Source: Candidatus Latescibacterota bacterium (GTDB taxonomy: Bacteria > Krumholzibacteriota > Krumholzibacteriia > Krumholzibacteriales > Krumholzibacteriaceae). Taken from it: a DNA stretch of 64,000 nucleotides. Positions 2,057 through 47,406 of this stretch are shown here, piece by piece. Position 1 is the stretch's first letter. Each line of letters begins with the position of its first letter. The notes beneath the pieces are model-generated. The model searched no databases. It was not told the DNA's origin and was given only the letters and a program-made list of their open reading frames with translations. Location of the stretch: NCBI GenBank assembly GCA_019038625.1, contig JAHOYU010000077.1, positions 3,703 through 67,702 on the forward strand, written 5' to 3'. The translations under genes were made by a program, and so were the position numbers.

Positions 2057-2103
2057 ATAAGCAGACACCCTGGCGTGAGCGAAAGATGCAGACAGCGTTC
2101 CGA

Positions 2104-2176
2104 ATTGCTATAGCTCAATTGGTAGAGCTTCTGACTATGGATCAGACTGTTACCGGTTCAAATCCGGTTAGCGAAT
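2104..2176 (+). tRNA. tRNA gene, 73 nt, no encoded CCA; anticodon loop CUAUGGA, identity uncertain
   Basis: Cloverleaf read by hand: acceptor ATTGCTA/TAGCGAA with six of seven pairs and an A1-A72 mismatch; D-arm GCTC-AATTGGTA-GAGC; anticodon stem TCTGA/TCAGA; 5-nt variable loop; T-arm ACCGG-TTCAAAT-CCGGT. Confidence 0.5.
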
Positions 2177-2195
2177 ATTGAGAGACTTGTAATCT

Positions 2196-16684: not shown

Positions 16685-18739
16685 CTAATTGACAGAACGA
16701 GTCCCCTGTACGCCCATGACATTCAAGGGTATTGATACTCCAGTACCTGTGCTCGGATCGAGGGTATCAAACACCGCTCCTATATAGCTCCCAGTTACGT
16801 CCGTGTGAAACGCCCGATAGGCATAGGTAGTATCCGTTGCCAAGCTATCGGTGGTTAGTACGGAGAACACGCCCTCTTCCCATGGGCCGTTGGTATCACT
16901 CGCGTCCAGAATCGTATCTGGCGTAGCGTGTCTGCCAAGTGGGAAGTATTGAAACCCACGAACTGTGATTGGGGTTGTGTTTGGCGTATACGTGAATCCG
17001 GTTGTTCCCGTAAACTGAGCGAGAACATACTTGACGGTATCTGCGTCTGTTGAGATAGTACCATCTGTTATGTCAGTTCTAACCGTGTCCGCTACATCGC
17101 TGTGTATGCGAGTGCCAGTAGTAGCCGAGAAGGCGGTTACAATATAAGCCGTGTCGATAGCAAGAGTGTCTGCTGTTATTGAAGTGTTGATGAAGAAGAC
17201 ACTATCTGTTCCAACGATAGACCATTGTACGTTGGTTGAGTCCGTGGATACGAATACCCTGGTTATCGTGTCGGCTGGAACGGCCTGCTTGTAAAAGGTA
17301 AACCCCACGCTGTCAAGAGAGCCGTCAGTCCCTACCGAGTCAACTGTTGCGCCAAGAGATAACTGAGGAGCAAGGCCGGTTACTTTGAGCGTGTCCGGGT
17401 TATTAGTTACCCCGGTAGTTACGTGTGAAAGGTTGGCAGGAGTATCATCATAATATATAACGATATGGTTATCTGTTATGCTGAACGTCAGAAGCTCGTT
17501 CGCATTTTGCGTATCACTAAACTGATCCCCCGCATCCTTTGCCATCAGCATCATTATCCGCAGGGTATCAGAATCGAGATATGACAGTAGCGTATCTTCT
17601 CCGGCAGTAGTGAAATCGAGCACCTGCCAGCCGGTTTCCTCTGACGTTGTAATCAGGGAATCAGTAAACACTACAACCCCATAAGCTCCGCCTCCGGAGC
17701 CATCGGCCCAACCTGGGAAAGAATTGTAATCATTTCTGTCAGGAACGCCAGTCCATGAACCTTCGACAAATAGCAGAGTATCGGCTTCTGTATTTGCATT
17801 AGCAGTGAGATTCATGTGCAGCTTTGCGGAATCTATGCTAACTGCGCTGGTGCTGTAGCCCGATAAATCAAAGGACATCAGGCCACGAAGAATATTCATC
17901 CGGCTGCCGTTATCATTGACGGCCTTGATTCTTAGGGTGGCGTTGGATGGATTTATAGCAAACTCAGAACCCCGGACGGAATCCCACGCCGCCTGTGTAG
18001 TGGCCCCAACCAGAAAGCCGAGTTCGGTAGTATCGCCCGCCATCATTGTATCATTGACCGAGGGGTCAACTGTAATTGGAAACACGGCCCCAGCCGTATC
18101 TACCAGCACAGTCAGGCTGTCTGCTGTGTAGTTGACGGTCAGCGGGACAGCCGAACCAGCAGCATCCCACGCCACCAATTTACCGAGTTCAGCAACTACC
18201 GCGCTTACAGCGTTCCTGACCCGACCCTTGCCCACGCCTTCATTTTCATGAGTGGACGTAAAATTAAAACCCCATGCCAAGCGATCAGGGCTGTCAGCCT
18301 CAAGATAATAATTGGCCTTCAACCCGTGAGCATGGATGTTAAACTCTATTCCGACATCAGTAGTATCGAAGGCCGGGAGAAATTCAACGAAGCCCTGTTT
18401 GCGCTCGAATCTGATCGCGCCAGTTTCGTTATAGGCAATATCAAACTTACCCGTCCGGATTACCTTGCTGAATGTGCCCGTGGTATCATCAGGCTCAAAG
18501 TTTAGATTAACCATCGTGCCGGAACTGTCACGGTGAATGGGCTGTAGGCCGATCATCGTAACGAACTTGCCGGAACCAATGCTATCAACCTCAAACGTCT
18601 TGCCGTTCAGCGTCCGTTTGCTCACCCGCTCTATTGTATTCGCTGGCTGCTGAAACTTCTCAGGCTTGTTGATCTTAAAACCCTTAGCCGACATCACTGA
18701 GGGCAATAGCATTAACAGCAATACAAGTGCGAATCTCAT
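16685..18739 (-). CDS. large protein (about 684 aa from Met16), beta-rich and Thr/Ser/Asp-rich, with a predicted N-terminal signal peptide
   Basis: AAGGAGGG RBS 7 nt before ATG. MRFALVLLLMLLPSVMSAKG signal peptide. The ORF track extends to a TTG at 18784. Confidence 0.55.
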   Translation of the reverse strand: MRFALVLLLMLLPSVMSAKGFKINKPEKFQQPANTIERVSKRTLNGKTFEVDSIGSGKFVTMIGLQPIHRDSSGTMVNLNFEPDDTTGTFSKVIRTGKFDIAYNETGAIRFERKQGFVEFLPAFDTTDVGIEFNIHAHGLKANYYLEADSPDRLAWGFNFTSTHENEGVGKGRVRNAVSAVVAELGKLVAWDAAGSAVPLTVNYTADSLTVLVDTAGAVFPITVDPSVNDTMMAGDTTELGFLVGATTQAAWDSVRGSEFAINPSNATLRIKAVNDNGSRMNILRGLMSFDLSGYSTSAVSIDSAKLHMNLTANANTEADTLLFVEGSWTGVPDRNDYNSFPGWADGSGGGAYGVVVFTDSLITTSEETGWQVLDFTTAGEDTLLSYLDSDTLRIMMLMAKDAGDQFSDTQNANELLTFSITDNHIVIYYDDTPANLSHVTTGVTNNPDTLKVTGLAPQLSLGATVDSVGTDGSLDSVGFTFYKQAVPADTITRVFVSTDSTNVQWSIVGTDSVFFINTSITADTLAIDTAYIVTAFSATTGTRIHSDVADTVRTDITDGTISTDADTVKYVLAQFTGTTGFTYTPNTTPITVRGFQYFPLGRHATPDTILDASDTNGPWEEGVFSVLTTDSLATDTTYAYRAFHTDVTGSYIGAVFDTLDPSTGTGVSIPLNVMGVQGTRSVN

Positions 18740-18752
18740 AATCATACCCTCC

Positions 18753-19631
18753 TTATTTGGATGCCCAGGGAAAGTTAACATCAAACATAATCATATCAGG
18801 ATGAATCACCCAACCAACAATTTGAGAAGCATGTCCGGCAGTAGTGTCTGCCGGGGCTTCTGTCAATCCTCCCGCCGTAGTGCTGACATATAAATAAGCG
18901 CCTATTTTAGTCCAGTTCCAAGTTGTATTATGAGCCACGCCGCGTGTCATTATGGTGCCAGAAGAGCCGTTACTTATGTTGGCCGTCGCCATGCCCATGC
19001 CGCGCTTGGCGTAAAACGATCCCGCACCGCTGCTCGTATCGGCATCCGCAAGTTTCCAAGTGCTGTCCGGGGCATAATAAAGAAGCTCGAAGGCACTGAT
19101 GGACTCTCCGGCCTTAGTCCACGAAGAAGGAGTATAGCCCTCCTTCATGTCCACATCGCCATCAGCTATGGTAAGATCGAAGAAGGGACTAACACTTATC
19201 CCGTCCACACGCAGTAGATCAGTAACCACGCTGTCAGCATTGGCAGCTAACGTACTATCACGGTTGAACGCATCATGTGCCGTTGCCGTGTCGCTTGCAA
19301 TTTCGGCAACAAGAATAGTGTCCGCACCGGAGATAATCGTGTCGCCGGAAATAGACATCGTGGTAAAGATGATCTGCCCATCTGCTCCGTAGGCAAATAC
19401 CAGTGTGCTATCAGCGCTCGCCGGTCTTGCCGCTGGCAGGTACATGGCGGAGTCAAGGTCTGCCGCCCACGACAGGGAGGTCGTAACCAGATCGGTATTC
19501 TTCCAGCCGACTCGACTGGTCTCCGTGATCTGTGCTGAGAGTGGAATAGCAAGGAGGCTGAGACCAATCAGCGCCCCCACGATACTTCTTATAAGCGCTC
19601 GTGTTCTCATGTTATTCTCCTCGGATTTCAT
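18753..19631 (-). CDS. protein (292 aa) with a predicted N-terminal signal peptide, paralog A
   Basis: Signal peptide ...RALIRSIVGALIGLSLLAIPLSAQ. Shares W(A/W)(A/E)DLDS(A/T)MYLP.ARP..ADS....YGA.GQI with 19612-20241. Confidence 0.55.
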   Translation of the reverse strand: MKSEENNMRTRALIRSIVGALIGLSLLAIPLSAQITETSRVGWKNTDLVTTSLSWAADLDSAMYLPAARPASADSTLVFAYGADGQIIFTTMSISGDTIISGADTILVAEIASDTATAHDAFNRDSTLAANADSVVTDLLRVDGISVSPFFDLTIADGDVDMKEGYTPSSWTKAGESISAFELLYYAPDSTWKLADADTSSGAGSFYAKRGMGMATANISNGSSGTIMTRGVAHNTTWNWTKIGAYLYVSTTAGGLTEAPADTTAGHASQIVGWVIHPDMIMFDVNFPWASK

Positions 19632-20241
19632 AGCTTACCCTGGTATCCCAGTAAACCGTCTTAAGATTAGCTCCGGTTATTTGCACGTCCACCGTCTGGC
19701 TATCAGTATTAGCCACTATATCGAAGTCGAAAGCTGCTCCGTCGCTATAATGGCTACTCAGTACAATCGAACTGCCCAGAATCGTCACGTCCCCGGCGGT
19801 GTCTCGGTAGAATGCGGCCTCTACTCGGTAGCTGGCTGCTTCGTCAGTCGCTGCGCGGGCTGTAGTCATCGCCAAGACAGAGATCGTCTGCTGTGCGGCC
19901 AACGGAATAGCCACGGCCACTTCCATCGTACTGGTCGTGGTGGTATCGGTAGCAATGGAAACGCTCTCGTAGTACCCTGCTCCGCCGCCACTTCCATAAG
20001 TCCAGACTATCTGCCCGCCAGCCCCATAGGTCAGTACCCATGAACTGTCGGCATCGTCCGGTCTGGCGGGCGGTAGGTACATCGTTGAATCCAAGTCCTC
20101 TGCCCACCACAGGCCAAGGGCGGTTGCATATCCATTGCTAAACCCCGGTCTCGTTCCCGTTACCTGCGCACTCGCCATTTGCGGCACCAGCAGCAGAAGA
20201 GATAGCATGATGGTAAGTCTTGTAATCCATTTTCTGTTCAT
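19612..20241 (-). CDS. protein (209 aa) with a predicted N-terminal signal peptide, paralog B
   Basis: Signal peptide MNRKWITRLTIMLSLLLLVPQMASAQ. Paralogous core with 18753-19631. Confidence 0.55.
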   Translation of the reverse strand: MNRKWITRLTIMLSLLLLVPQMASAQVTGTRPGFSNGYATALGLWWAEDLDSTMYLPPARPDDADSSWVLTYGAGGQIVWTYGSGGGAGYYESVSIATDTTTTSTMEVAVAIPLAAQQTISVLAMTTARAATDEAASYRVEAAFYRDTAGDVTILGSSIVLSSHYSDGAAFDFDIVANTDSQTVDVQITGANLKTVYWDTRVSYEIRGE

Positions 20242-20668: not shown

Positions 20669-21898
20669 TTATGCGTTTACTCCGCGATTATCCAACCAAC
20701 CCAATGTGCAAACGTCAACAGCATAAGCATCCTGGGATGGTCGTATTCTGATTTGTCCGCTGCTGTTAACCCTGACTTCTATCTGCCCGGTACTGAACCG
20801 GACACCTGTATTCAACGGCACCGCAAGCTGTGGAAACGGCGCGGTCGTGTACTCGTTGGGCGCTTCATCGTCAATGCTAAGAGAACTGAAATAAACACTT
20901 CCGGCCACCGCATTTGTACCGGCGGTCGCCGTGATTATCGCGGAAACGCTGGAATCTGGTGGAACCGTAAGCGCCTGGGTAGTAGCAGGAGAGGCATCAA
21001 TGTTACCATCACCAGCAGCATTCCTGTCCTCAACGGTTTCCTTCCACAGAAAAGTATCAGCATCCTGGCTAAAATCCTTGATCTGTGAACTGGAATCGGT
21101 TTTAATCCAGCCGATTCTACGGAAAGTGGTATATCCGGTTGGCAGTGTGGGGCTTGACGCGCTGGTGCTGATCATAATGTCAGTGGTATCGCTCTCAGGG
21201 TTATAGATCAGATGCACGGCGTACCACGTATTTACAATGATGGAAAGGCCTGATTGCAGGCTCCCGTTGCCGGTACCCACTACCCACCCGCTTAAGGTCT
21301 TTGTATAATTTGAGGCCAATGTCGGTGAGGTGCTATCCGTGCTGTCCCGGCATTTACCGGCTGACACCCCGAAGGTAGTAACAGCCGAGTAAGAAAGGGT
21401 TAGCCCGCTGAGATGTTCGGGCGGCACGCTGGCCGCAGAACCGCCAATGTTGGTAAGATTGGACCCGTCAAGTACGGGCAACTTGGCATCGTCATCGAGT
21501 AGCAGGACTTCACCGCCATCCGTGCCAGCATCCTTGGTGGCGGCTGTACCGAGGCCGAGAGATGAGCGCATTGCGGTAGCGCTTGCCTGTGCAAGCAGGT
21601 CGCGTGCATCGTCTGTGATCTGGAGGGCGAGAACGTAATCGATGGTGTCAATGAGATTATCGTCACTATCGTAAAGCTCAATCTTGTAAAGACCTTCACC
21701 AAATATAGCAGCCATCCCATAGCTGTTGAGAATAACCGGATTGGCGTTGGCGCTTGACATGCCACCGTCTTGCCATGTGACCTTGGGGGTGCTTGTTCCA
21801 GCTTCGTAGGTTCTTACCTTGCCACCGGAAAGAGGCGCTCCTGAGCTATCGAATGCCTGAAACCAGGGGTTATTCAGGGGAGGTGCGTAATCAGCCAT
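20669..21898 (-). CDS. tail fiber protein
   Basis: The N-terminal region ...DDARDLLAQASATAMRSSLGLGTAATKDAGTDGGEVLLLDDDAKLPVLDGSNLTNIG matches the conserved tail-fiber N-terminal (collar-attachment) motif common to many phages. The C-terminus is beta-rich. Confidence 0.6.
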   Translation of the reverse strand: MADYAPPLNNPWFQAFDSSGAPLSGGKVRTYEAGTSTPKVTWQDGGMSSANANPVILNSYGMAAIFGEGLYKIELYDSDDNLIDTIDYVLALQITDDARDLLAQASATAMRSSLGLGTAATKDAGTDGGEVLLLDDDAKLPVLDGSNLTNIGGSAASVPPEHLSGLTLSYSAVTTFGVSAGKCRDSTDSTSPTLASNYTKTLSGWVVGTGNGSLQSGLSIIVNTWYAVHLIYNPESDTTDIMISTSASSPTLPTGYTTFRRIGWIKTDSSSQIKDFSQDADTFLWKETVEDRNAAGDGNIDASPATTQALTVPPDSSVSAIITATAGTNAVAGSVYFSSLSIDDEAPNEYTTAPFPQLAVPLNTGVRFSTGQIEVRVNSSGQIRIRPSQDAYAVDVCTLGWLDNRGVNA

Positions 21899-22085: not shown

Positions 22086-25000
22086 CTATTTCTTAATGCG
22101 CCCAATATCGCGCAGGGATTTTCTCAACTGCTTGCCAGGATCAGGAGGCTTTGGGAAAACAGGAGATTCCCGAACCGGAACCGCCTTAAGTTCGGGATTG
22201 ATTTTCCTCTGCTCCTTGATGAACCGACTCTTAACGGACTTCGCAGTTTTCTTCTCCATTGACCCATCCGCGACAGCCCTATCCACTGCACTCTTGAAAC
22301 GCTCCCGCTCTCCTGCGGTAAACACGGTGGTCGCCGCATCGTCCAACATACCGTAGACAGTTTGCTTACTCTTACCAGGATAAGGTTTACGGTAAAAACG
22401 GCGCATCACGGGTATAAACCGCGTTTCTATCTTTTCATCAGTTGCCAGTGAGATGCCGGTAGCCACCGAATTGCTGACAAACTTCCCAATTCCACCGCCC
22501 AGGAAGTTGATCGTGTGGTCAATATACTCAGGGCTGACATCCGCCGCACCGAAAGGCTTACGCTGCGTAGCGGTCTTCTCTGCCAACCAGCGAGTGAATT
22601 CCCTTGTGGATGGGCGCACGCCCTTGAAATATAACTGGTGCCGTGGCTTTTTAGGCCCATAGGCCGGTTGATCTGGTGCCACAGGGCCACCGAAAAATGT
22701 TTTATTTGTAGCCAACTGCACCGGCAGATCAAGGGCAGTCGGTGAAATGATCTGTGTCAACGGGCCACCGCCAACAGGACTTGCAGCATCGGCCACCGCG
22801 CCCACCATCCTGGCCGCGAGTTTAACTGGATCAGGGTTATTGCCTAATGCCATTTCTGCCGCCAGTCCACCGAGCGCCCAATAGACGTTAAGCCCGTAAG
22901 GCAACGGTACGCTCAATGTTCTGCCGCCGCCAAGATGCCAAGTAGCGTTCTGATCCTTTTGGAAGTCGGCCACTTCCTCCCAATCGTCAGGATCGATCAT
23001 GCGATTCTTTAACTCGTTGAGAAATGCGGTGGCTATGATAAGGCCGATCAGCGCCTGTGCCCTTACCTGTCCTGCCGTCTTAGGCTTACCGGGGATGCCG
23101 ATTGTTCTCAAATTACGGGCTATGCCCTGAATCGTAGCATTTGAGAACAGGTACAGACTGTTCAATATCCTACCGATTTCACCTTTTTTATTAAAGTTGA
23201 CGGTCACGTTTTTAGCATAACTCGCGGCCACTTCCTTTGTCGCGCCAGCACCCTTAAGGTGATGGTATACCGACAGGCGGATACCGCTCTCCACCATCTC
23301 ATTGTAATCCTGTATTAATTGCCCAAGGACTTTTATCGGTGCGACTATCCGACCTTTACCCGTGTAAGAGCGCACCTTGCGCTCAAGCTGTTTTATCCTC
23401 TGCTCCAACGGCTTGTTGTCAAACCAACCTACCTTACCGCCAGTAGCCTTCAAGTCCTCATACTCAGCAGCCCAACCTTTATCCGCATCACTTCTGATGT
23501 TACCGCGCACACCGTTGATAGCCGCAGGTAGTGAGGCAAGTGTCTTAGTCGCCAGCTTAAATCCATGATCGGAAGTGATATGGAATGTGGCCGTGGGGGT
23601 ATCCCTGATGAAGTTGAAGATCGGGAATACGGGCGAAAACGTTGTTATTACCCCGCGCTGTATGGTGTTAAACAGTTCAAGCGCACCGCCGATTATGGGC
23701 ACGGTACTCTCTGTACCTAAGCTTTTCATTGCACGGGCGAGAACCACATCCCTGATAGTCACCTCTATGGTCTTGCCCTCTTCCTTGACGGCAAATATCT
23801 CATGCGCATAATCACTCGCCGGATCACGAAACGCAATCTCTCCCTCTTCGTTTATTGTCGAAGGGTTAAAGACCTCCTTGGCATCCCAAAGCGGATGAGG
23901 ATTGTTGCGCACGAACTCAAGGAACGTACTGGCTACCTTGTTCTTTTCCTCGCGCATTACCGCCTGCTCGTAGTCTACGATGGCCTGCACGAATGGATTG
24001 TCCGCAATCGACCAGCGCCCATGTGCCCGCTTAATGGACTTCCCGCTTACCGAGAATCCCTTACCGATACCACGATAGGCTTTCTTACCCGCCTTACCCT
24101 TGAGCGGTACGTAATAATTGTACTGGTCCTTATACTTCTGGTAAGCTTCTTCTGTGATCTCACCATAGTCACGGTAACGTTCGAGCGTCACGTTGATAAT
24201 CTTCTTACGGAACTCATCGGCAAACTCTTCTATGCCCGTACCCTCGTAACGATCCAGAACAACAGCAGCCTGGTTTAATGATATACCGGCCCCGAAAGTA
24301 TCATCCCGATCCTCAAGCCTCGCACTCAGCTTCGCAAGTTCCTTTTCAGCCACCTCTGGCGTGATAACCCCAGCCTCAAGCTGTGCGTTAAGATCGTCAA
24401 TCATCTCTCCGTACTTAGCCTGACGGCGTTCGGCGGTGTGCTTCGCGTACATGAACCCACCGAGTTTGCCCACACTATATCCAGCTTGAGCCAAGCGCAC
24501 CATGAACGACTTCCTGCCCTTGGTCAGAAAATCCTCAAGTTTATCAAGCTCGTGCGACACTCTGCCGGGGAACAACTCTGCGGCCAGCCGCGTATCCTCT
24601 GTCTGCGGAACCACATCATAAGCTTTCTGGATTGTCTCTATTCTGTTCAGCTTATCGACTACCACGCGCACAAACTTCTCCCTGTTTGTCTCATCATCAA
24701 TCTGAGGAATGGTGCGCTCAAGATCAGCAGAGACATCGGTGCGGGCGAAGCGCAACCCCTGCTCTGCGGCCACCATCTGCCGCTCAAGCTCTGCGATCTT
24801 CTGCAAGTAACGCATCTGTATGTTTTCCGTGCTCACCCCGTTGCGCATCGGCGGTAGGTTAGCCAACAACTCTGATACCTGCTGTATCTCCTTCTCTATG
24901 GCAACAGGGTCAAGGGTACGGGCGAACAAAGGCTGACCAGCCTCTCTCTCCGCTCTCTTGCGCCCCATACTCGCCCTCAGAGCATCATCGAGCAACACCC

Positions 25001-28000
25001 TTAGTTCGGCTTCACTGAACGCAAATCGCACACCTATGGCCTTCAGGGTGCGCCGTATGAAGGCCATCAGCCTGTCCAACAGACTCGGTGCTACCGTTCC
25101 ATCCTCTATCTGTCCGGCAAGCATTTCCTCGGCAGCTTTTTCAAGGGGAATGTTCCACCTGTCGGCTATGCCCTGGATTTCATCTTTGTACTTCTTATGC
25201 TCGATCAACTCCTTGCGGTAGAACTCATCGATACCACTACCGAGTACCCGGCGTAGCCCGTAGTGCGCTACAACCTCATGCAATACAGTGCTAACCGCTT
25301 TCTTGCGTTGCCGCAGGCTATCGGCTATCAGATACATTTCTTCGGTAGTCGGATCGAAGAAGCCACGGATTACGCCGCCCTTTTCCATCTCAGCCTTCAC
25401 CGCATCCTGGTACTGCGCTGGCAGGTCTTCAACGGACTGCACGGTATTCACCGGCACGTCAATCTTGGCGGCCAGTGGCTTAACCGCATCCTCGATGAAC
25501 TTGACGGACTTAGGTTTTGCGGCAGGCTTGCCTTCCCGTGTTGCAAAGCGGAGCTTGCCTTCTGGCGGTTTCTCGGTGGGTTTTACTTCCTCAGCAGCGG
25601 GCTTTTTCTTTAGACGCGCCTCTCTGCTATCAATCAAATATTTAGCATCGGAGAAGGCTCGTGCGTGCATCTTAGCACCATCCTTTTCCAATCTAAAGGC
25701 ATACTTTTCCCCAAGCGGAGACATAGGATTAATTTTAACAACTCTATACCCGTGTTTTTTTGCATACTCTCGAACTTCTTTAATTTCTGACCTGCGCACA
25801 GCATAGCCATCAAATGTCTTGACGGCCTCATAATCTTCACCGAGAGACTTGGCTTTGCGCTGTGCTGCTCCCTGAGACTTAAATGGACGACCAGTGCTGG
25901 TGAATATTAGTTCTGGTTCAATCTTTACTTCCTCGCGCTGCTCAGGCGCGTCCTCAACGGGCGGAGCGGATTTCTCAAGCTCGGTCAGCTTGCGCTTGTC
26001 CTTCTCAACCTGTCGGGCAACAGCGGCCAGCGCATCCTTGCTCATCTTTTTACCGATAACATTCTTACCAGACTCAAGAATCATCTCGCCTTCGCGGATG
26101 TCGTTCTTCTTTGCCTGGATTGCGGCTGCATCAAGAACTGGCTTCACTTCCTCTTTCATTCCCGCAGCTTCGGTTACAGGCGCGGCGGGTTCGGGTTTGG
26201 CTGGGGGTGTGCTGGCATCAACAATAACAGCCGGAAATGATTTTACCCCAAGCATTGCAAGGGCATCAAATCGATGACCACCCTCAAGGATATATGGCCC
26301 CTTGTCTTCTATGGCTACAATAAGTGGATTGATTTCTTTATTGCTCTTAATTTCATCCGCAAGTTTACGGATGCGTTCATTCTCAGTAGCACTATGGGAG
26401 GGTTTGTTTACGTCTTCTGCCACTGTGAAGGCATCCATAGAAACATCCCTAACGCCCGGTAATATTTCATATTCACCTTCGTCATAGGTTGATTCTATCG
26501 AACCCATGTTAGGTACGGCTTTGCGGACAGTGTAACCGTACAGCTTATCTTTGGTCGTTGGGGCCGCCCTAACGCTTTCAATGTTCGCCTCTACCGCCTC
26601 AGCCTTTTCCTCGCCCTTTTCTTCCGCAACGACTTCAGGCTCCGGTGCGACCTCAGCTTGTGCTTCTTCTTCTTTTTCTTCCGCTTTTTCCTCGAAAACT
26701 TCACGTGCATGCTCTCTCGCGTACACATCAACTGGCTTGTCGCTCTTATATAGTTCATCTACGGCCTCCACTGTACCAAGTTTGGAAACCTTATCCTCGA
26801 TAAACTTGCGTGTATCATCGGTTATCTCTGCCTCTGCCTCAACCGCCTTCGCCAGCTTCTTTTCAATCTCTGTTGCTGGTTCTTTTTCCTCAGCCTTGCG
26901 CTTTTCCTCAGCGGCGAGGGCTGAAACTTCCTCTTTCGCTGGCTCTTCTGGCTTCTCTGCGGCTTTTTCCTCTTCCGCCACCTCTTTGACCGGCTCTTCA
27001 GCGATCACCTCTTCAGCGGCCTCTGCGGGCTTTTCGGTGGTAACTTCTTCGCCAAACATTTTATTCAGATCAGATTCAAGTTCGTCGGCTGTTTCAGCGG
27101 GCTTTTTCGCAGTGGGCTCTTCTTTGGGCTTTTCGACCTCTTTTTTAACCTTAACTTCTTTCTCTGTAACGGGTTTAGTGGGGGGCTCTTCAGCCACCGC
27201 AAGTTCTTCATCCTCTATCAGTGCTTCAGCCTCCTCCGCGCTTACCTCGGCCTCTACCTCTGGCCCCAATTCTTTCGTGAACGGCTGTTTGGCCTTGTCG
27301 CCCTCGACTGTCTTTTCTGCCTCAAGTTTCTCTTTTACGGCAGCTTGCATATCATCTCTTATCTTGCGCTCACGAATTAGTTGCTCTTCCTGCTCAAGAC
27401 CCAAATCGCCTTTCCCCTGCTCTTCCTCCAAGGCTTTTACGCGGTTCTCCTGTGCTTTCTGGATATAACCCGATACGGCACTTCCACCACCACCCATAAT
27501 CATCGCAGGGCCAATAACAGCAAGCCCGTCCTTCATCTTCTGGCGATACTCGGCACCCTCCATGCCTAAGATTTCAGCCTCAAGCGGTTCTTCGGCGTAT
27601 TCTGTTGCCCCCTCGGTTAATGCCGCCACGGTAGCCATAACAAGCTTCTTGCCCTTATACTTGGAAAATATGGCAGTAAAGCCTATTTGGTTGAGAACCG
27701 CGCTACCCACGGTCATCAACATCATATCCTTGAACGCTTCATCCGGCTCATTCCCGCGCTCACGCGATTCACCATAGGTATTTGCCCCCTCCATCATGCC
27801 CGCAGAAATACCACCAATAGCAGTCGCGGCGAGTTTCCCGAATCTTAGCGCAGCCGCGCCAGGAAGCATCGCGGCGAGAAACGATGGAGCCATATTACCA
27901 ACTCCATACAAGGTAAATCGAGGGTCAAGGATGATCTCAGGGTTATCCCAAAGGTTCTTGCCCTGTAATTCTTTCGCCATTGGGTGTTCTTCGGCCTTCT

Positions 28001-28622
28001 CCTTTAAGAAGTCCCTTACGCGCCTTGCCCCTATTTCAAGGGCACCCTCTCCTTCAACCTGTTCTGCTACCGCGTGCGTTATGGCAAACGGAATACTCGC
28101 TACGTCGAGGACACCTGCGGTCAATCCCTCGGCCAGTGATTCCATATACCCTTGTGGGTCGGCTATAGATCGTTGATCTTCTGGCATCTGCTCAACCACA
28201 CCACCGGCTTCAGGCATTACCGGGAGTTCGGACACGGTATCATACGGCTCCGGCTCCAAGCCTACGATATCCGCAATACCAGACTCTTGCGCGGCGGCAG
28301 CCAATTCCTTGTCGGCCTCTAACGAGAACCGATCCGGTTCAGCCGCTACCGCTGTTTCTGGAAATAGTGGGCGCTGCCCTTCGACCATAGCCTGATGCGC
28401 CTCGGTAAGCTGGTCACCGGCCATAGGATTAGGGAGATACTTATTAAGGAAGTGATCTTTAATGCGTGTCTGGTCTTCTGCGGCAATAGAATTAAAACGG
28501 TTATCTGCAATATTATTATCGAAATACTTCATAACTATCGCAGACTGTTGTTCGTGGGGCAACCTGATAAACCGTTCATCCCGCTGCCACTTATTGATTA
28601 ATCTGCTCAGGCGATCAGGCAT
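22086..28622 (-). CDS. giant 2178-aa protein with an internal ParB/Srx-like nuclease domain; probably an ejected internal-virion or polyvalent protein
   Basis: Single uninterrupted ORF. N-terminal region with Gly/Ala-rich hydrophobic segments; 300 aa of E/K/A-rich low complexity; ParB-like motif NPLIVAIEDKGPYILEGGHRFDALAMLG at about 26200-26360; HEVVAHYG motif; about 1000-aa C-terminal globular region. It sits in the slot occupied by large ejection proteins in podovirus-like gene orders. Confidence 0.6.
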   Translation of the reverse strand: MPDRLSRLINKWQRDERFIRLPHEQQSAIVMKYFDNNIADNRFNSIAAEDQTRIKDHFLNKYLPNPMAGDQLTEAHQAMVEGQRPLFPETAVAAEPDRFSLEADKELAAAAQESGIADIVGLEPEPYDTVSELPVMPEAGGVVEQMPEDQRSIADPQGYMESLAEGLTAGVLDVASIPFAITHAVAEQVEGEGALEIGARRVRDFLKEKAEEHPMAKELQGKNLWDNPEIILDPRFTLYGVGNMAPSFLAAMLPGAAALRFGKLAATAIGGISAGMMEGANTYGESRERGNEPDEAFKDMMLMTVGSAVLNQIGFTAIFSKYKGKKLVMATVAALTEGATEYAEEPLEAEILGMEGAEYRQKMKDGLAVIGPAMIMGGGGSAVSGYIQKAQENRVKALEEEQGKGDLGLEQEEQLIRERKIRDDMQAAVKEKLEAEKTVEGDKAKQPFTKELGPEVEAEVSAEEAEALIEDEELAVAEEPPTKPVTEKEVKVKKEVEKPKEEPTAKKPAETADELESDLNKMFGEEVTTEKPAEAAEEVIAEEPVKEVAEEEKAAEKPEEPAKEEVSALAAEEKRKAEEKEPATEIEKKLAKAVEAEAEITDDTRKFIEDKVSKLGTVEAVDELYKSDKPVDVYAREHAREVFEEKAEEKEEEAQAEVAPEPEVVAEEKGEEKAEAVEANIESVRAAPTTKDKLYGYTVRKAVPNMGSIESTYDEGEYEILPGVRDVSMDAFTVAEDVNKPSHSATENERIRKLADEIKSNKEINPLIVAIEDKGPYILEGGHRFDALAMLGVKSFPAVIVDASTPPAKPEPAAPVTEAAGMKEEVKPVLDAAAIQAKKNDIREGEMILESGKNVIGKKMSKDALAAVARQVEKDKRKLTELEKSAPPVEDAPEQREEVKIEPELIFTSTGRPFKSQGAAQRKAKSLGEDYEAVKTFDGYAVRRSEIKEVREYAKKHGYRVVKINPMSPLGEKYAFRLEKDGAKMHARAFSDAKYLIDSREARLKKKPAAEEVKPTEKPPEGKLRFATREGKPAAKPKSVKFIEDAVKPLAAKIDVPVNTVQSVEDLPAQYQDAVKAEMEKGGVIRGFFDPTTEEMYLIADSLRQRKKAVSTVLHEVVAHYGLRRVLGSGIDEFYRKELIEHKKYKDEIQGIADRWNIPLEKAAEEMLAGQIEDGTVAPSLLDRLMAFIRRTLKAIGVRFAFSEAELRVLLDDALRASMGRKRAEREAGQPLFARTLDPVAIEKEIQQVSELLANLPPMRNGVSTENIQMRYLQKIAELERQMVAAEQGLRFARTDVSADLERTIPQIDDETNREKFVRVVVDKLNRIETIQKAYDVVPQTEDTRLAAELFPGRVSHELDKLEDFLTKGRKSFMVRLAQAGYSVGKLGGFMYAKHTAERRQAKYGEMIDDLNAQLEAGVITPEVAEKELAKLSARLEDRDDTFGAGISLNQAAVVLDRYEGTGIEEFADEFRKKIINVTLERYRDYGEITEEAYQKYKDQYNYYVPLKGKAGKKAYRGIGKGFSVSGKSIKRAHGRWSIADNPFVQAIVDYEQAVMREEKNKVASTFLEFVRNNPHPLWDAKEVFNPSTINEEGEIAFRDPASDYAHEIFAVKEEGKTIEVTIRDVVLARAMKSLGTESTVPIIGGALELFNTIQRGVITTFSPVFPIFNFIRDTPTATFHITSDHGFKLATKTLASLPAAINGVRGNIRSDADKGWAAEYEDLKATGGKVGWFDNKPLEQRIKQLERKVRSYTGKGRIVAPIKVLGQLIQDYNEMVESGIRLSVYHHLKGAGATKEVAASYAKNVTVNFNKKGEIGRILNSLYLFSNATIQGIARNLRTIGIPGKPKTAGQVRAQALIGLIIATAFLNELKNRMIDPDDWEEVADFQKDQNATWHLGGGRTLSVPLPYGLNVYWALGGLAAEMALGNNPDPVKLAARMVGAVADAASPVGGGPLTQIISPTALDLPVQLATNKTFFGGPVAPDQPAYGPKKPRHQLYFKGVRPSTREFTRWLAEKTATQRKPFGAADVSPEYIDHTINFLGGGIGKFVSNSVATGISLATDEKIETRFIPVMRRFYRKPYPGKSKQTVYGMLDDAATTVFTAGERERFKSAVDRAVADGSMEKKTAKSVKSRFIKEQRKINPELKAVPVRESPVFPKPPDPGKQLRKSLRDIGRIKK
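22087..22132. repeat. 46-bp direct repeat, copy 2 (3' end of the giant ORF, encoding ...PGKQLRKSLRDIGRIKK)
   Basis: Exact duplicate of 21938-21983. Confidence 0.7.
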
Positions 28623-28917
28623 TGAACGGCCTTATTGGGGGGTGGCACGATGACTAAAAAGTACTTAAGGCAACCCACGCTGGAGAAATCAAAATAGGGG
28701 ACACCATAATCCCTTGTGCAGTTTTGGAAGATGGCACAAGGTTACTCACACAACAAGGCTTTCTTGTTGCTATTGGTCGTTCAGGACAACCCGCAAAAGG
28801 GCGCGGGTCACAACTCGAAAAGATGGCCCTTTTTTTGGATATAAAAAACATAAGACCCTACGTAGACAAAGAGTTAGAGGATTCGAGTAAACCAGTTCTT
28901 TTCCAGTTATTTCATGC

Positions 28918-29148
28918 TCAAGGAAATTCTTCAGACATGCAACCTTGCTCTACGCGAGAAAGATGCCTAATGGTTCTTATCTCGTCCTGTAGAATGTTTG
29001 CAACTTCAGGTATGTGGTGTTGCGCCTTGACCCTTGATTGAATTAGCTTATATGCTTCAATGGCTACTTCGTGAAGGTCTTCGGATTTTGGCGAAGCGTC
29101 CACAATGTCCTCCTTGTTACTCATTGGAGTAGAATGCGATTCGTTCAT
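28918..29148 (-). CDS. small hypothetical protein (76 aa)
   Basis: AAGGGGGAC RBS before ATG, directly downstream of 29184-29999. Confidence 0.45.
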   Translation of the reverse strand: MNESHSTPMSNKEDIVDASPKSEDLHEVAIEAYKLIQSRVKAQHHIPEVANILQDEIRTIRHLSRVEQGCMSEEFP

Positions 29149-29183
29149 CTTGTCCCCCTTTGGGTACGTTAATTACAATCGCC

Positions 29184-29999
29184 CTATTTTAGCTCTATCC
29201 CAACTTCTTCTGCCAAAGTATCAAGTTCCGATCCCTCGTCTCCAGAAACCTCTTCACCAAATCCAATCCTTTCATCAACCATTTCTGCAATCTTTTTCTT
29301 ATCTTCGTCAGTGAGAGGCTTTGTGCCCGTGATTTCACGGTTGCCGTTTTCATCCGGTTCCCCCCAGGTATAAAGATCGTTCTCGTACCGGTAATCGCTA
29401 ACCGCGCTACTTAAAACATCTAACCGTTGTTTTGGAGTCAGTTTTTTCCCAGACTCATCCTTTTGATTGGCAAGCTTATTTTGCAATTCCTTATCTAATA
29501 CCATCATCCGGTTTGCGGCCCGTTCGTTCTCGATCCTGATTTGATTATTCGTCTTGAATGTCTCAAACCGATATTCTGCGGATTTATCCTCTACCGCTGC
29601 CATTAGCTTGGGATGTATCTCATTCCACTGCTCATCGGACATATTGGGATCAAGCTCAGGAATTTCCTGCGGGTTTACGCCCATTTCATCTATTGCATAC
29701 TGACGAAACTCCTGATATTGTTGCGCGTTCTCAACAAGCGGTAGACTTTTCATGGCCATGTTAAGCACGCGCCGGTTCGACTGGTATTGGTATTCCTTAT
29801 CCTCGCGCCCTTCTGTTATACCGCGCCTTGCCTTGTCGGCCTTGAGCTTATCTATCTGAAGACCGCCACGTTCAAGCGCCTGCTCGGACGCTGCCTGACG
29901 GATAGACCTGCCCTGCCTGGATGTCTTGATTGCCTCTGCCTGTTGCATTGCAGGGCCAAGAACTTGTCCCGTATCAAGCTGAGGAATTGCCATGATCAC
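29184..29999 (-). CDS. virion-associated protein (271 aa), possible internal or core protein
   Basis: Charged, helical-looking ORF in the structural block. Confidence 0.5.
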   Translation of the reverse strand: MIMAIPQLDTGQVLGPAMQQAEAIKTSRQGRSIRQAASEQALERGGLQIDKLKADKARRGITEGREDKEYQYQSNRRVLNMAMKSLPLVENAQQYQEFRQYAIDEMGVNPQEIPELDPNMSDEQWNEIHPKLMAAVEDKSAEYRFETFKTNNQIRIENERAANRMMVLDKELQNKLANQKDESGKKLTPKQRLDVLSSAVSDYRYENDLYTWGEPDENGNREITGTKPLTDEDKKKIAEMVDERIGFGEEVSGDEGSELDTLAEEVGIELK

Positions 30000-30002
30000 C
30001 CC

Positions 30003-30689
30003 TTATCCATATACTTTCTGGTTCACCGGATCAACAGTATTCCGGTTAAACTGGCTTCCGGCTGGCGTGGCCGCATCCGCCACACCGGCCACGCCCGTAT
30101 CCTCTTTCGCCAAATCGCGCAGGGTCACGTCTCTTGCCGTAGAGCGGGCAACGTTGGCTACGTTGATACCTGCCCCTGCGTAAGCCTCACCCTTGGCCAT
30201 CTCAGCGGATGCAATCTGACCAGCAGCAGCAGAACCAGCCGCCACCTGACCGGCAGCCGAAGCCTGACCGACACCGGCCATCTGCCTCAGAGGCTCAAGG
30301 CTTTGGTAATACCGGGCAAGAAAACGATCACGCTCATCGGTGGCATAATCTTGGCCGTAGCGCACAAGCTCTTTCCCGAACTTCCCGCTACCAAGTTCAC
30401 CTTTGGCCGAGGCCGCGCGTCTTGCGGCCTTTTCGCCCTCTTCCATTCTAAACTGGTAGCCTGGGCTTTCGGTAAACTCGCCGGGGCCAGCCTGTATTTT
30501 TTCATCATAGAGTTTAAGCGCATCCTCACCGGCAGCACGCCACGGCTGTAGGTCTGCCCTTGACTGTGCCGCAGCGTCACGGATAGTTGCCTGCGCCTTA
30601 GAAGCAGACTTTGCCTGAATCGCGGCTGATCCAGTAGCCGCAGCCGCACTTACACCCGCTGCTATTAACGTACTTGTAGCTACGGCCAT
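30003..30689 (-). CDS. virion-associated protein (228 aa), Ala/Gly-rich
   Basis: ORF in the structural block; low-complexity A/G-rich ends. Confidence 0.5.
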   Translation of the reverse strand: MAVATSTLIAAGVSAAAATGSAAIQAKSASKAQATIRDAAAQSRADLQPWRAAGEDALKLYDEKIQAGPGEFTESPGYQFRMEEGEKAARRAASAKGELGSGKFGKELVRYGQDYATDERDRFLARYYQSLEPLRQMAGVGQASAAGQVAAGSAAAGQIASAEMAKGEAYAGAGINVANVARSTARDVTLRDLAKEDTGVAGVADAATPAGSQFNRNTVDPVNQKVYG

Positions 30690-30690
30690 C

Positions 30691-31173
30691 TCACACCTTC
30701 TTGATAAGTAGATGCTCTAATGAAGTATAACCATTTCGGGCATAGTAGCGCAATAAGACCCGCTCTCTGGGGTTGTCATGCGTTCCCATAATACAGAATT
30801 GCGCTCCTGCGGCCTTTGCCGTAGACTCAAACTGTTCCAATAGCCAGTGTTCAACGCCGCTACCTCGATGATCTTTCGCAACATACCACCAAGCTTCCTG
30901 GCAAACCGACTGCTCTCTGCACAGCAGCCACGGACTGATAGTACCGGCAATCGTACCCACCACCTCATTATTATCACCAATGGCGAGTATCAGGATGCCA
31001 AAGTCATTGTTAATCAAAAGCTTTATAGTCTCAAGCAGGCTGAACGCATTGGCATCAAGCCCCTTATCCTTCAGCGTAGTCTCATTGTAGAACGCCGCAC
31101 CAAGACCAATCAGTTGCGTCAGATACGGCTCAACCATCCCATCGCTGACGATATTTATAATCCGGTAGTTCAT
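30691..31173 (-). CDS. GNAT-family N-acetyltransferase
   Basis: Motif A-like ...AKDHRGSGVEHWLLEQFESTAKAAG (R-x-x-G-x-G) and overall GNAT pattern. Embedded between tail genes. Confidence 0.6.
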   Translation of the reverse strand: MNYRIINIVSDGMVEPYLTQLIGLGAAFYNETTLKDKGLDANAFSLLETIKLLINNDFGILILAIGDNNEVVGTIAGTISPWLLCREQSVCQEAWWYVAKDHRGSGVEHWLLEQFESTAKAAGAQFCIMGTHDNPRERVLLRYYARNGYTSLEHLLIKKV

Positions 31174-31196: not shown

Positions 31197-33455
31197 TTAT
31201 GAATCAACGGCTATGGTGCCTACAAATCCATCGCCGAATTTTACTTTTAGATTGCCATCGGCGCTATTGCCGTATATTTGTATGACTCCACTTATTGTAT
31301 CCGGCTCGGTTACGCCATCGGTGACACAGATGATGTCTGTCCGAACCTTGCCCGCTTTATCCCACGAGAATTCGGTGCCAAGGGTCGTTACTTTGATTGT
31401 GCTTTCGGTCGGGGGTGTAGGCAAGGTGCCGCGCGTTCGCCTGATGCGTATCCAGTAGTAGTCCACTACATTGTCACCCGCGCCCGTAACTTCGTTGACC
31501 GTCCGCACTCCCCAGTCGGTCAGGTTGTCTTTATCAAAGGTGATAGCTCCAGAGTTCTGGAAGCCTGATGTGCTATCGTCTGGAGTGAAAGCGTGCCAAG
31601 TTCCAGCATCCTTGACATACTCAAATGTCGGGATAATGGTATGGCTTGCTGGCGTGACAAGGATCGCATTTATCTCGTCCCACTTCGCTGCCGCCGCTAT
31701 GTAGATATAGTCGTCGTCACTTGGGAAGAGCTGGACGTTTGTTCCAGAATCCCCGAAAGCAGTAGTCCGATCCGTGTAAGTATCCGTATCATAAGAAAAC
31801 GCGGCGGTTATGGAAGCCAGCGTCCCAAGATGCTGGTGAATAACATCAACATTGCCGTTAGAGCCAACGGCAGCTACGTTCATATCGGTGTTGGCCGTGT
31901 CTGTTACACTCACGCTAAGGCCATGAACATCACCTGCCGTGGCTCCCGCGTTATCTACCAGGACGCAGTTAGCGTGTCCTACCTTGGCAGCATCATCAAA
32001 GGCTGTAGCATCGAAGTTTACGCTATTCCCACATATTCCAGAGTAAATATCCGCGTCCACTTCCAGAAAAACGGCGCGATGATTGTCCTTCCCGGCGGTT
32101 ATGAGATAGTGAAGTGCGTGATCGTTATTGGCTTCATCACAATGCACCTTGAATGAAGCCCCGGCATTTACACCAATATGAAAATGCACATCCCCATTAT
32201 CAAGCACGAACATAAGAGGATGGTTAATTACCACGAAGTCCACGCCAGTCAGGTCATCTGGAGAAGCCGCTCCGGTCGAGTCTAAAGAGATAGTAATCGT
32301 AGTCTCTTCTACTGCGATAATCTCTCCGGTTGCCCCAATATAAGAAGCATCGCTTGCATCCGTTATTCTAAGCACATCTCCTACTACCACACCGTCAGTT
32401 ACAAATGTTTCTCCGGCTTTAAGAAACGTGAATGTAGCGGCAGTGAAAGTAGCGGCTATATCATACCATAAGGTTTTCGTCTTGGCATACTCCCGCATCA
32501 GGAGAGAGGGTCCATACTTATTGGCAATCGCGTACATCCCGTTACCCCAGTAACAACCGCCATCATTTGAGAATAGATCACCCTCGCTCCCAAAGAATCC
32601 AGTGGAATCGGCATCGTCCCCCAATTGCACGTTCTCGTGGAATGTCACTTTCTTAGCAGCATCCACGGTCATCACGACCACCCACGCCCCTGTAGCATAC
32701 GACTCAAGAGTGAACCCGGCAGCCGTCTTGCTGGCCACCAAGCGCCACTTGTCGGCGTTATCGTCACCTTCGTCGGCACTCAGGTAGATAATCCCGTCCG
32801 TATCCTCGGCACCCTTGACCGTCAGATCATCGCTCGTTACAAGCGTACCGCCCACGGTAGCATTGCCCGCAATTGTCGCCGTGGCACCGCCTACGTCTCC
32901 TACTACATCAAGATCACCACCAACGTCAGCATTGCCGGTAATATTGGCGGTTGCGCTCTCCATTTCCCCTGTTACATCAAGAGACGCGCCAGTTATGGCC
33001 CCAGCTATCGTCGCCGTAGCTCCAGCAACGTCGCCGGTCACATCAAGGTCTCCTCCTACATCCGCATCGCCAGTGACATTCAGGGTCGCGCTCTCCACCT
33101 CGCCAGTAACATCAAGCGAATCACCGGTTATCGCGGCACCTGAAATATCACCGTCAATACTCGCATCACCATCGGCTTCAATATTACGGCCCGCCAGAAC
33201 GTCCCGTTCCGCGATCACATCCTTGCCAGACTTGATGTCGCCCAGATCAGAGGTAGTAATATCATTCTTAACCTCAAGGCTATTGAGCGACAGATCACTA
33301 TCAATACCGGTTGCGGTTTCAACCGCTTCAGTGGTATCAGATAACTCTCTTACTATGGCCCCAAACCACTCCTGCCACGCCACGGACATAATGGTCTTTT
33401 CTTCATCCTCGAAGAAGGGCGTTTCAATCGGTGGCTCTATGAACTGGTTGGCCAT
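31197..33455 (-). CDS. large tail or structural protein (752 aa) with tandem 45-aa repeats
   Basis: Repeats AITG(D/A)SLDVTGE.ESAT.N.TG.ADVGGDLDV.GDV.GATATIAG occur twice, then a beta-rich body. Confidence 0.55.
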   Translation of the reverse strand: MANQFIEPPIETPFFEDEEKTIMSVAWQEWFGAIVRELSDTTEAVETATGIDSDLSLNSLEVKNDITTSDLGDIKSGKDVIAERDVLAGRNIEADGDASIDGDISGAAITGDSLDVTGEVESATLNVTGDADVGGDLDVTGDVAGATATIAGAITGASLDVTGEMESATANITGNADVGGDLDVVGDVGGATATIAGNATVGGTLVTSDDLTVKGAEDTDGIIYLSADEGDDNADKWRLVASKTAAGFTLESYATGAWVVVMTVDAAKKVTFHENVQLGDDADSTGFFGSEGDLFSNDGGCYWGNGMYAIANKYGPSLLMREYAKTKTLWYDIAATFTAATFTFLKAGETFVTDGVVVGDVLRITDASDASYIGATGEIIAVEETTITISLDSTGAASPDDLTGVDFVVINHPLMFVLDNGDVHFHIGVNAGASFKVHCDEANNDHALHYLITAGKDNHRAVFLEVDADIYSGICGNSVNFDATAFDDAAKVGHANCVLVDNAGATAGDVHGLSVSVTDTANTDMNVAAVGSNGNVDVIHQHLGTLASITAAFSYDTDTYTDRTTAFGDSGTNVQLFPSDDDYIYIAAAAKWDEINAILVTPASHTIIPTFEYVKDAGTWHAFTPDDSTSGFQNSGAITFDKDNLTDWGVRTVNEVTGAGDNVVDYYWIRIRRTRGTLPTPPTESTIKVTTLGTEFSWDKAGKVRTDIICVTDGVTEPDTISGVIQIYGNSADGNLKVKFGDGFVGTIAVDS
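32865..33134 (-). repeat. tandem 135-bp coding repeat (two units) inside the 752-aa gene
   Basis: Two consecutive 45-aa units are near-identical at protein and DNA level. Confidence 0.55.
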
Positions 33456-47106: not shown

Positions 47107-47406
47107 TCAATATAGAGGCTTGTCCGTAGCCGGTGTCCGCGTTGCGCCCGCCTTTTTCTTCTTTGCCACTCGTTCAGGCTTTACTGCCAGCGCCTGTTCC
47201 ACGGCCCTGCAGTAGCCATTCGAGTCCGCTACTTTCCCATGGGTCAGATCGGGCCTGTCCATGTCAATGACCTTATTCTGACTCAATCTCCTGCGCTCAT
47301 CTTCCAGCGCGGCACTAAGCGCTCTCCTGAAATGTTGGGTAACAGGATGATTGAACCATTGCTGAAATACATCATCATTTACCGGTAGATTTCTTATTCT
47401 TGCCAT
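47107..47406 (-). CDS. hypothetical protein (99 aa)
   Basis: The ORF overlaps the portal gene's stop by 32 nt. Confidence 0.35.
   Translation of the reverse strand: MARIRNLPVNDDVFQQWFNHPVTQHFRRALSAALEDERRRLSQNKVIDMDRPDLTHGKVADSNGYCRAVEQALAVKPERVAKKKKAGATRTPATDKPLY

Follow-up and report, generated by a model that had tools for sequence, protein, structure and literature searches.

A giant phage-type polyvalent protein with a minimal ParB/Srx-superfamily domain, encoded among the ejection-protein genes of an uncultivated podovirus-like phage

What kind of protein is encoded by a single very long gene among the late genes of an uncultivated phage, and is it likely to leave the capsid together with the DNA? 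The question is raised by a stretch of 64,000 nucleotides (the window) from contig JAHOYU010000077.1 of assembly GCA_019038625.1, deposited under the name Candidatus Latescibacterota bacterium, in which an uninterrupted open reading frame (ORF) with an ATG start encodes 2178 amino acids, followed by a stop codon. The window is a phage genome, with TerL, portal, major capsid protein, adaptors and Hc3 nozzle all encoded on one strand. Polyvalent proteins make up 10-20% of the coding capacity in many podoviruses, Shiga-toxin phages included. A sequence-only reading of this DNA had likened the giant product to the polyvalent proteins that phages co-inject with their genomes, and an LPD38 domain (E=9.5e-32) and 42 giant homologues bear out that likeness. 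We consider it probable, at roughly three chances in four, that this giant polyvalent protein is packed in the podovirus-like capsid and is ejected through the tail with, or just ahead of, the DNA, carrying effector cargo.

The protein belongs to the phage-type polyvalent class on account of LPD38, the PHROG matches, and giant homologues with shuffled effector modules. LPD38 (PF18857) is matched in Pfam with 111 bits against a cut-off of 27, over profile positions 2-188 of 189. PHROGs 14770 (E=1e-119), 616 and 10691 match residues ~1086-2139, and all three are families of giant proteins with function unassigned. The 42 other proteins returned by a homologue search with the giant protein are 1563-3803 amino acids long, and nearly all of them share only residues ~1300-2100 of the query in local BLAST. 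The modules swapped among these homologues are ART-PolyVal, DdrB-ParB, InPase, MuF-C, zeta toxin, GH108, SNF2 and Sno helicase modules, and HATPase. Several unrelated effector domains in one chain, and a late, virion-gene setting with portal and terminase, are further marks of the class that are found here. According to Iyer et al. 2017 (PMC5512222), LPD38 is confined to polyvalent proteins of the phage type, which are predicted to be packaged, and the metallopeptidase hub domain of polyvalent proteins has 'a distinct ParB domain' as one of its fusion partners. The class, the combination of ParB with metallopeptidase and the packaging in virions have thus already been published, contrary to the novelty that the sequence-only reading implied; what the giant protein adds to this already described class is a combination of cargo domains without example among cultured phages.

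Profile searches gave LPD38 and the ParB/Srx family rather than an ordinary tape-measure or transglycosylase type. The whole protein matches no transglycosylase, lysozyme, methylase or helicase family in Pfam, and no tape measure or peptidoglycan hydrolase in Pfam or PHROG, in agreement with the lack of transglycosylase signatures noted from the sequence. Assignment as a T7 gp16-type transglycosylase internal virion protein or as a tape measure was rejected, there being no SLT, lysozyme or TMP match. The label 'DarB-like antirestriction', borne by relatives in JC1, BcepIL02 and GP4, is not transferable to a protein with no methylase or helicase family match.

The region that defines the family is a C-terminal module (C-module), which is all-alpha in an AlphaFold2 (AF2) model (predicted local distance difference test, pLDDT, 77; predicted template modelling score, pTM, 0.77) and includes a hydrophobic helix at residues 1850-1871. 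The model has no fold relative in the PDB; in the BFVD it has 78 matches, the best with a template modelling (TM) score of ~0.7, to proteins named 'large polyvalent protein associated domain'. This conserved module extends over ~880 amino acids (2.6 kb), instead of the C-terminal region of about 1 kb described from the sequence alone. Structure prediction had been suggested for residues 1100-2178, among others, and AF2 models were made of the C-module and of a peptidase domain. The C-module is present by tblastn in 345 deposited phage records, which include ~100 Vibrio podophages, Shiga-toxin (Stx) phages, Ralstonia phages, Bcep22-like Burkholderia phages and Bacillus megaterium podophages. 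By BLASTP the giant protein is 28% identical to 933W L0134 (E=4e-88) and 25% identical to JC1 gp69 (E=1e-51). A whole-protein search of IMG/VR found no close relative, and megablast of the giant gene against 50,697 phage genomes found no match. To our knowledge, no function has been established for the universal C-terminal module or for most cargo domains of polyvalent proteins.

The LPD38 phage-type proteins used for comparison are 933W L0134, phi24B gp47, Bcep22 gp75, the BcepIL02 protein, JC1 gp69 and the 'DarB-like' protein of Ralstonia phage GP4. Like these, the giant protein is a giant single chain from a podovirus late operon with an Hc3-type nozzle, and it has a homologous C-terminal module with LPD38, effector domains on low-complexity linkers, a zincin-like peptidase, no cysteine, and a GNAT gene nearby, as in JC1. 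It differs from 933W in lacking LPD5, LPD1 and MuF-C, from the Bcep22-like phages in lacking helicase, methylase and lysozyme, and from the whole set in having a minimal ParB/Srx domain and an N-terminal module (N-module), both of which are absent from deposited phage genomes.

The position of the gene is also that of an ejection protein. Because a protein of PHROG 598 is encoded upstream and a tailspike gene lies downstream, the giant gene occupies the ejection-protein slot of a podovirus-type order, as the sequence-only reading had held. The N-terminus of the tailspike matches head-binding domains of known structure (PDB 9vyg and 7eeq, E=4e-5 to 2e-3). The same slot in the gene order, running from nozzle or needle genes to tailspike, is that of P22 gp7, gp20 and gp16 and of T7 gp14, gp15 and gp16, with which the giant protein would share a presumed exit from the capsid through the tail.

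Two homologues are proven virion proteins. In CsCl-purified virions of JC1, mass spectrometry assigned 51 unique peptides to gp69, which ranked second among the proteins by score (PMC9144972). In phi24B, gp47, which contains LPD5, LPD1, LPD38 and MuF-C, is abundant in purified virions by mass spectrometry and invisible in cryo-electron microscopy; it is proposed there to be an ejection protein carried in the capsid, with a role as trans-periplasmic conduit (bioRxiv 10.64898/2026.04.10.717836). The counterpart of phi24B gp47 in 933W is taken to be L0134, from domain sets and sizes and not from direct comparison. Gill and co-workers reportedly obtained the same virion result for Bcep22 and BcepIL02 in 2011.

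A second line of evidence is the amino acid composition. The giant protein has no cysteine in 2178 residues, where ~16 would be expected from the 0.72% cysteine content of the other window ORFs (P ~1e-7). Of the related giants, 53 of 105 are without any cysteine, with a joint average of 0.09%, and JC1 gp69 has none in 4515 residues. Small neighbours are cysteine-free as well, both in the window (29184-29999 and 30003-30689) and in 933W (L0130-L0133) and JC1 (gp64, gp67 and gp68, which are virion-associated by mass spectrometry), whereas cysteine is present in the capsid, portal, nozzle, terminase and GNAT proteins. In three unrelated phages the giant protein and its small neighbours stand out as a block by their near-total avoidance of cysteine. 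Such a block may be a mark by which ejected proteins can be recognised from sequence, and the absence of cysteine could reflect selection on proteins that cross the tail and the periplasm in an unfolded state.

The most distinctive part of the cargo is the ParB/Srx domain, named for ParB and sulfiredoxin (Srx). Its signature, ILEGGHRFDALAMLG, lies at residues 778-792 (window 26247-26291) and contains the motif E780-G-G-H783-R784. The segment alone matches Pfam ParB_N (PF02195) at E=3.2e-5 to 4.6e-5, with 23.8-24.3 bits, and Spo0J in the PDB (1vz0) at E=0.002. A word-indexed homologue search with residues 690-830 returned 83 proteins, 40-57% identical, of 77-234 amino acids. A profile made from 55 sequences of this family matches ParB (7o0n) at E=3.4e-7; Noc, Spo0J, SbnI and sulfiredoxin are matched by it as well, and 35 of the 55 members match PF02195. 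Given this match of the family profile to ParB structures, membership of the ParB/Srx superfamily is secure, and what the sequence-only reading had called a ParB/Srx-like motif is part of a true superfamily domain. Across the 55 sequences the E, G and R of EGGHR never vary, the H is kept in at least 90%, and the motif aligns on the GERR turn of ParB/Spo0J and the GCHR turn of Srx. The domain ends ~20 residues past the GGHR helix, at about residue 805, and gives way to a Pro/Ala/Glu linker; no helix-turn-helix (HTH) or ParB-C family is matched in Pfam after it, and its stand-alone homologues have only 110-230 amino acids. The DdrB-like ParB domain (PF18763) was rejected as an assignment, as it does not match the segment at E<=10, compared with 2e-25 for the giant homologue P0031.

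Among ParB/Srx enzymes, the domain was compared with sulfiredoxin, the ParB domain of the ParB-methyltransferase Bce_0392, Osa, GmrS/DUF262 and DndB. It resembles these in being a predicted alpha+beta domain of ~110 amino acids with an acidic-Gly-x-His/Gln-Arg motif on a strand-helix turn. In enzymes of the superfamily this turn binds nucleotide phosphate and metal, and a motif of this type is typical of ParB-like nucleases and NTPases such as DndB and GmrS, unlike the CTP-clamp type. It differs in a family-specific N-terminal extension, VDGRxVRxxIPNxxSIxASL, and in having no fused HNH or methylase, and it is not a sulfiredoxin, because no cysteine is present.

This ParB sub-family, of which we know of no studied member, is large. 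In an exhaustive profile search, counted as clusters at 50% identity, 1593 representatives score E<=1e-3, of which 705 score E<=1e-30, and among the 150 best about 59 have at least 1000 amino acids. A Pfam scan of 16 such giants found LPD38 in five, ART-PolyVal in three, Sno-type helicase in three and InPase in two, and also PBECR5 and N6-methylase. By the length of the ORF that holds the domain, the 80 sub-family loci in IMG/VR divide into 45 with at least 1000 amino acids, 21 with 300-999 and 14 with less than 300; only three of the 45 giants have the C-module, and three have the N-module. There is no tblastn match to the sub-family in the 50,697 deposited phage genomes. Embedded in giants at 45 of 80 IMG/VR loci and absent from deposited phages, the ParB module is therefore a common giant-protein cargo in uncultivated phages, to which both the sub-family and the N-module are so far confined. 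At one locus (L006:6001-9836, a Logan contig of SRR12088348), a stand-alone ParB homologue of 149 amino acids is encoded in overlap with the beginning of a separate ART-PolyVal gene, after which come genes for a 556-amino-acid GNAT and an AAA_33 P-loop kinase-like protein. The arrangement is operonic and looks like an 'unbundled' effector set, with types that are fused in polyvalent proteins present as separate adjacent genes. The other stand-alone ParB genes examined have no fixed partner in their gene context.

The HEVVAH motif reported by the sequence-only reading is present at residues 1115-1120 (window 25263-25280); its pattern is HEXXXH and not HEXXH. In an alignment of 11 homologous peptidase segments, with members down to 21-25% identical, HEXXXH is found in most and HEXXH in few; both His and the downstream Glu are invariant, the latter in an AAEExxAxxxE motif that reads AAEEmlAgqiE in the giant protein (two Glu invariant in the alignment). 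A profile of the peptidase gave chance-level matches only against PDB and Pfam sequences. The AF2 model (pLDDT 87.8, pTM 0.76) has the order H2-12, E17-20, E46-49, E54-58 and H65-80, the last with HEXXXH, followed by further helices. The metallopeptidase core of polyvalent proteins was described as an N-terminal helix, a three-stranded sheet and two C-terminal helices, with an HEXXXH clade included (Iyer et al. 2017). Since motif, downstream Glu and modelled core agree, the domain is probably a zincin-like metallopeptidase (MPTase) of this kind. Assignment to Pfam MuF_C was rejected, MuF_C being a separate, neighbouring domain in P0031, P0043 and L0134. A word-indexed homologue search with residues 1000-1300 was empty, even though the relative P0002 is 75% identical to the giant protein over this region; the empty result is taken as an artefact of low-complexity words.

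Around the peptidase domain lies a short recurring motif. The pattern [LIP][RKQL][FY][AS][RT] occurs three times in the giant protein, against 0.07 copies expected from shuffles; the copies lie on both sides of the peptidase domain and at the start of the C-module. In giants with this peptidase clade it occurs 18 times against 2.7 expected, and in giants without it 21 times against 10.8; six proteins have a copy 15-30 residues upstream of the peptidase domain. The L-R-F-A-R/T copies may be autoprocessing sites, which is offered as a lead and not as a finding.

The coordinates of all features are collected in Table 1. The ORF, motifs and segments described in the sequence-only reading are all present where it had placed them. 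An identical protein is deposited at NCBI (here P0001) from a 70.9-kb contig as 'MAG: ParB N-terminal domain-containing protein [Bacteroidales bacterium]', with 2148 amino acids; its start lies 30 codons 3' of the first ATG, so that window 28533-28622 is skipped. The 30 skipped residues align with the N-termini of the relatives P0006, P0007 and P0008 in a local MAFFT alignment, and for this reason the ATG at 28622 is probably the better start and the deposited one too short.

Table 1. Features of the giant ORF and of the surrounding late genes, in window coordinates (aa, amino acids)
Feature	Position	Strand	Remarks
Whole ORF	22086..28622	-	predicted phage-type polyvalent, virion and ejection protein, 2178 aa
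N-terminal leader, aa 1-154	28161..28622	-	conservation weak; first ~60 aa align with N-termini of P0006, P0007, P0008
N-module, aa 155-400	27423..28160	-	conserved, Gly/Ala-rich, moderately hydrophobic
Acidic E/K/A-rich low-complexity linker, aa 401-695	26538..27422	-	from composition
Minimal ParB/Srx-superfamily domain, aa ~696-806	26205..26537	-	profile match and invariant motif
Middle region, aa 807-1023	25554..26204	-	P/A/E linker and small basic segments (FTSTGRPFKSQGAAQRKAKSLG...)
Motif copy 1, LRFAT, aa 1024-1028	25539..25553	-	14 residues before peptidase domain
Zincin-like metallopeptidase (MPTase) domain, aa 1042-1227	24942..25499	-	HEVVAH and downstream Glu
Motif copy 2, PLFAR, aa 1231-1235	24918..24932	-	directly 3' of peptidase domain
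Motif copy 3, LRFAR, aa 1290-1294	24741..24755	-	start of C-module
All-alpha C-module, aa 1300-2100	22323..24725	-	conserved, family-defining
LPD38 (Pfam PF18857), aa 1879-2072	22407..22988	-	within C-module; Pfam match
Basic C-terminal tail, aa 2101-2178	22089..22322	-	net charge +12; low pLDDT in AF2 model
TerL	51674-54229	-	851 aa
Portal	47375-49423	-	late block
Major capsid protein	42863-43792	-	late block
Two Ad3 adaptors; 752-aa protein		-	late block
Hc3 nozzle	33455-35296	-	late block
GNAT acetyltransferase	30691-31173	-	in nozzle/ejection-protein block
Upstream ejection protein	30003-30689	-	228 aa, no Cys; PHROG 598 'DNA ejection', E=6e-26
Upstream neighbour	29184-29999	-	271 aa, no Cys; no family match; candidate ejection protein by position only
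Downstream tailspike or tail fibre	20669-21898	-	409 aa; P22-type head-binding N-domain; PHROG 26190

The N-module has the landmarks ELQGKNLWDNPEIILDPRF...MEGANTY...DGLAVIGPAMIMGGGGS and is 40-64% identical in the relatives P0002-P0008, where it is always found in the N-terminal part (residues ~1-450, or ~158-590 in P0003). It has no Pfam, PHROG or PDB match, and no tblastn match in the 50,697 deposited phage genomes. It contains four stretches rich in Gly and Ala (residues 163-185, 241-266, 301-319 and 366-384) that are moderately hydrophobic, with Kyte-Doolittle values of 1.3-1.5; they were rejected as clear transmembrane helices, the typical cut-off for which lies above these values. The linker that follows (residues ~400-700) consists of E, K and A to 46-66% per 100 amino acids, with a net charge of about -44. 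The middle region is common in part to P0003, P0005 and P0008; it has no Pfam or PDB match, a PDB search with residues 830-1040 being empty.

The minus-strand late block is ordered from high to low coordinates, and the plus-strand part of the window has RecE/RecT-like genes, a DnaC-like loader and a DNA methyltransferase. TerL is unusually long, and its N-terminal P-loop region also matches, more weakly, the PHROG DnaC-like loader and primase families. At the position of the GNAT gene, JC1 has the N-acetyltransferase gp63, which has no BLASTP similarity to the window GNAT; each has three cysteines among cysteine-free neighbours. Further cysteine-free ORFs near the giant gene are found at 16685-18784, 18753-19631 and 19612-20241. 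The gap of ~560 bp directly upstream of the giant ORF (28623-29183) contains only short ORFs on the coding strand (65 and 76 amino acids) and no Rfam family at the gathering threshold; it may serve as promoter or in regulation, or hold a small gene that has escaped annotation. The sole tRNA gene of the window (2103-2177, plus strand) is called by ARAGORN as tRNA-His with anticodon ATG, the usual one being GTG, and matches the Rfam tRNA family with 58 bits.

A further known system for comparison is the Dar system of phage P1, whose proteins are carried in the capsid and injected to protect the DNA as it enters, and in which DdrB pairs a ParB-superfamily domain with a zincin. P1 DdrB has a DdrB-like ParB domain and a C-terminal MPTase, and is proteolytically processed (Iyer et al. 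2017). However, the ParB domain of the giant protein matches PF02195 and not PF18763, there is no DarB methyltransferase or helicase, and P1 is a myovirus.

On the preferred reading, the giant protein would be a late product that enters the capsid and is ejected once the needle has been released. The constant C-module, perhaps together with the hydrophobic N-module, would serve encapsidation and passage through the envelope, and the variable middle part would be the cargo. The metallopeptidase would cut the chain during or after delivery, possibly at the three L-R-F-A-R/T motifs, and thereby free an N-terminal fragment with the ParB/Srx domain. Once freed, this domain might act very early in infection as a nicking nuclease or NTPase, dependent on nucleoside triphosphate (NTP), on DNA or on a component of the host defence.

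Among the alternatives, the one that survives best is that the protein is a structural ejection or conduit protein, a very long 'ruler' or part of a trans-envelope channel, in which the ParB-like and HEXXXH segments are relics without activity or function as effectors. This would fit the conduit proposed for gp47 by the phi24B authors, the all-alpha C-module with its hydrophobic helix, the four moderately hydrophobic segments of the N-module, and the Gly at the position of the catalytic Glu/Cys of ParB. It is nevertheless unlikely. Over 55 sequences that are 40-55% identical, EGGHR and ~13 further positions do not vary, and they are kept in the stand-alone proteins, which cannot be structural relics; the HEXXXH/HEXXH and the downstream Glu have likewise remained invariant among peptidase segments of very low identity. 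The modules are, moreover, shuffled among the giants like cargo, and conduit and effector roles are compatible.

It is decidedly unlikely that the giant protein remains unpackaged, as a late cytoplasmic multi-enzyme for, e.g., modification or processing of phage DNA that is merely encoded in a structural operon. The virion proteomes come from relatives and not from the phage of the giant protein, and phage ParB-methylase fusions act in the cytoplasm, which counts for such a role, as does the cleavage of P1 DdrB before packaging (Iyer et al. 2017). Yet homologues of the C-module are found in two independent virion proteomes, LPD38 is restricted to polyvalent proteins predicted to be packaged, and the extreme avoidance of cysteine is common to the neighbouring ejection proteins and not to capsid, portal, terminase or GNAT.

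A partition ParB, or a Noc/KorB-like CTP clamp on the phage genome, e.g. for maintenance of a plasmid-prophage, is very unlikely indeed: the best PDB sequence matches are chromosomal ParB, Spo0J and Noc, and the NCBI name is that of a ParB N-terminal domain, but the domain is minimal, no HTH or dimerisation domain follows the GGHR helix, CTP-binding boxes I (QPR) and III (ENLQR) have no counterpart in the alignments and box II changes from GERRxR to GGHRFD, no ParA was found among the 42 other window ORFs scanned, and polyvalent ParB domains are without a ParA partner (Iyer et al. 2017).

Several points weigh against the account of a packaged and processed effector carrier. The phage is uncultivated, and packaging and activity of the giant protein itself are argued by analogy with its relatives. 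With no solved structural relative, a role of the C-module in packaging or translocation can be proposed only from its universality. The flanking genes (22 window ORFs) have no BLASTP similarity to the JC1 or 933W neighbours, and synteny with these phages is for that reason functional only. By itself the ParB segment does not reach the Pfam gathering score of 26.3 bits, and the ParB/Srx fold of residues ~696-806 is predicted from alignment. The catalytic Glu/Cys position of GERR/GCHR is Gly in the giant protein which, together with the absence of the CTP boxes, means that the chemistry is not readable from known ParB enzymes. Finally, the enrichment of the L-R-F-A-R/T motif comes mostly from close relatives (P0001, P0002, P0004 and P0006), and the motif may be a conserved structural element instead of a cleavage site.

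These findings refine, and do not change, the current picture of polyvalent proteins. The motif that brackets the metallopeptidase suggests, as a concrete hypothesis, at which points such proteins may be cut. A more far-reaching idea, which we regard as rather doubtful, is that the minimal ParB/Srx module, which in IMG/VR is embedded more often than not in giant cysteine-free proteins, represents a large family of injected effectors, released in the host through cuts by the peptidase at the L-R-F-A-R/T motifs, with an activity new for the superfamily. If this were true, the module might poison defence NTPases of the same fold through mixed NTP-dependent dimers, with GmrS/DUF262, DndB and BREX- or Dnd-associated ParB-like proteins as candidate targets, or might destroy an immunity nucleotide, and would in either case differ from an enzyme that simply nicks DNA. 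A well-defined ParB/Srx cargo sub-family that is absent from cultured phages and common in metagenomes is, in itself, a testable lead.

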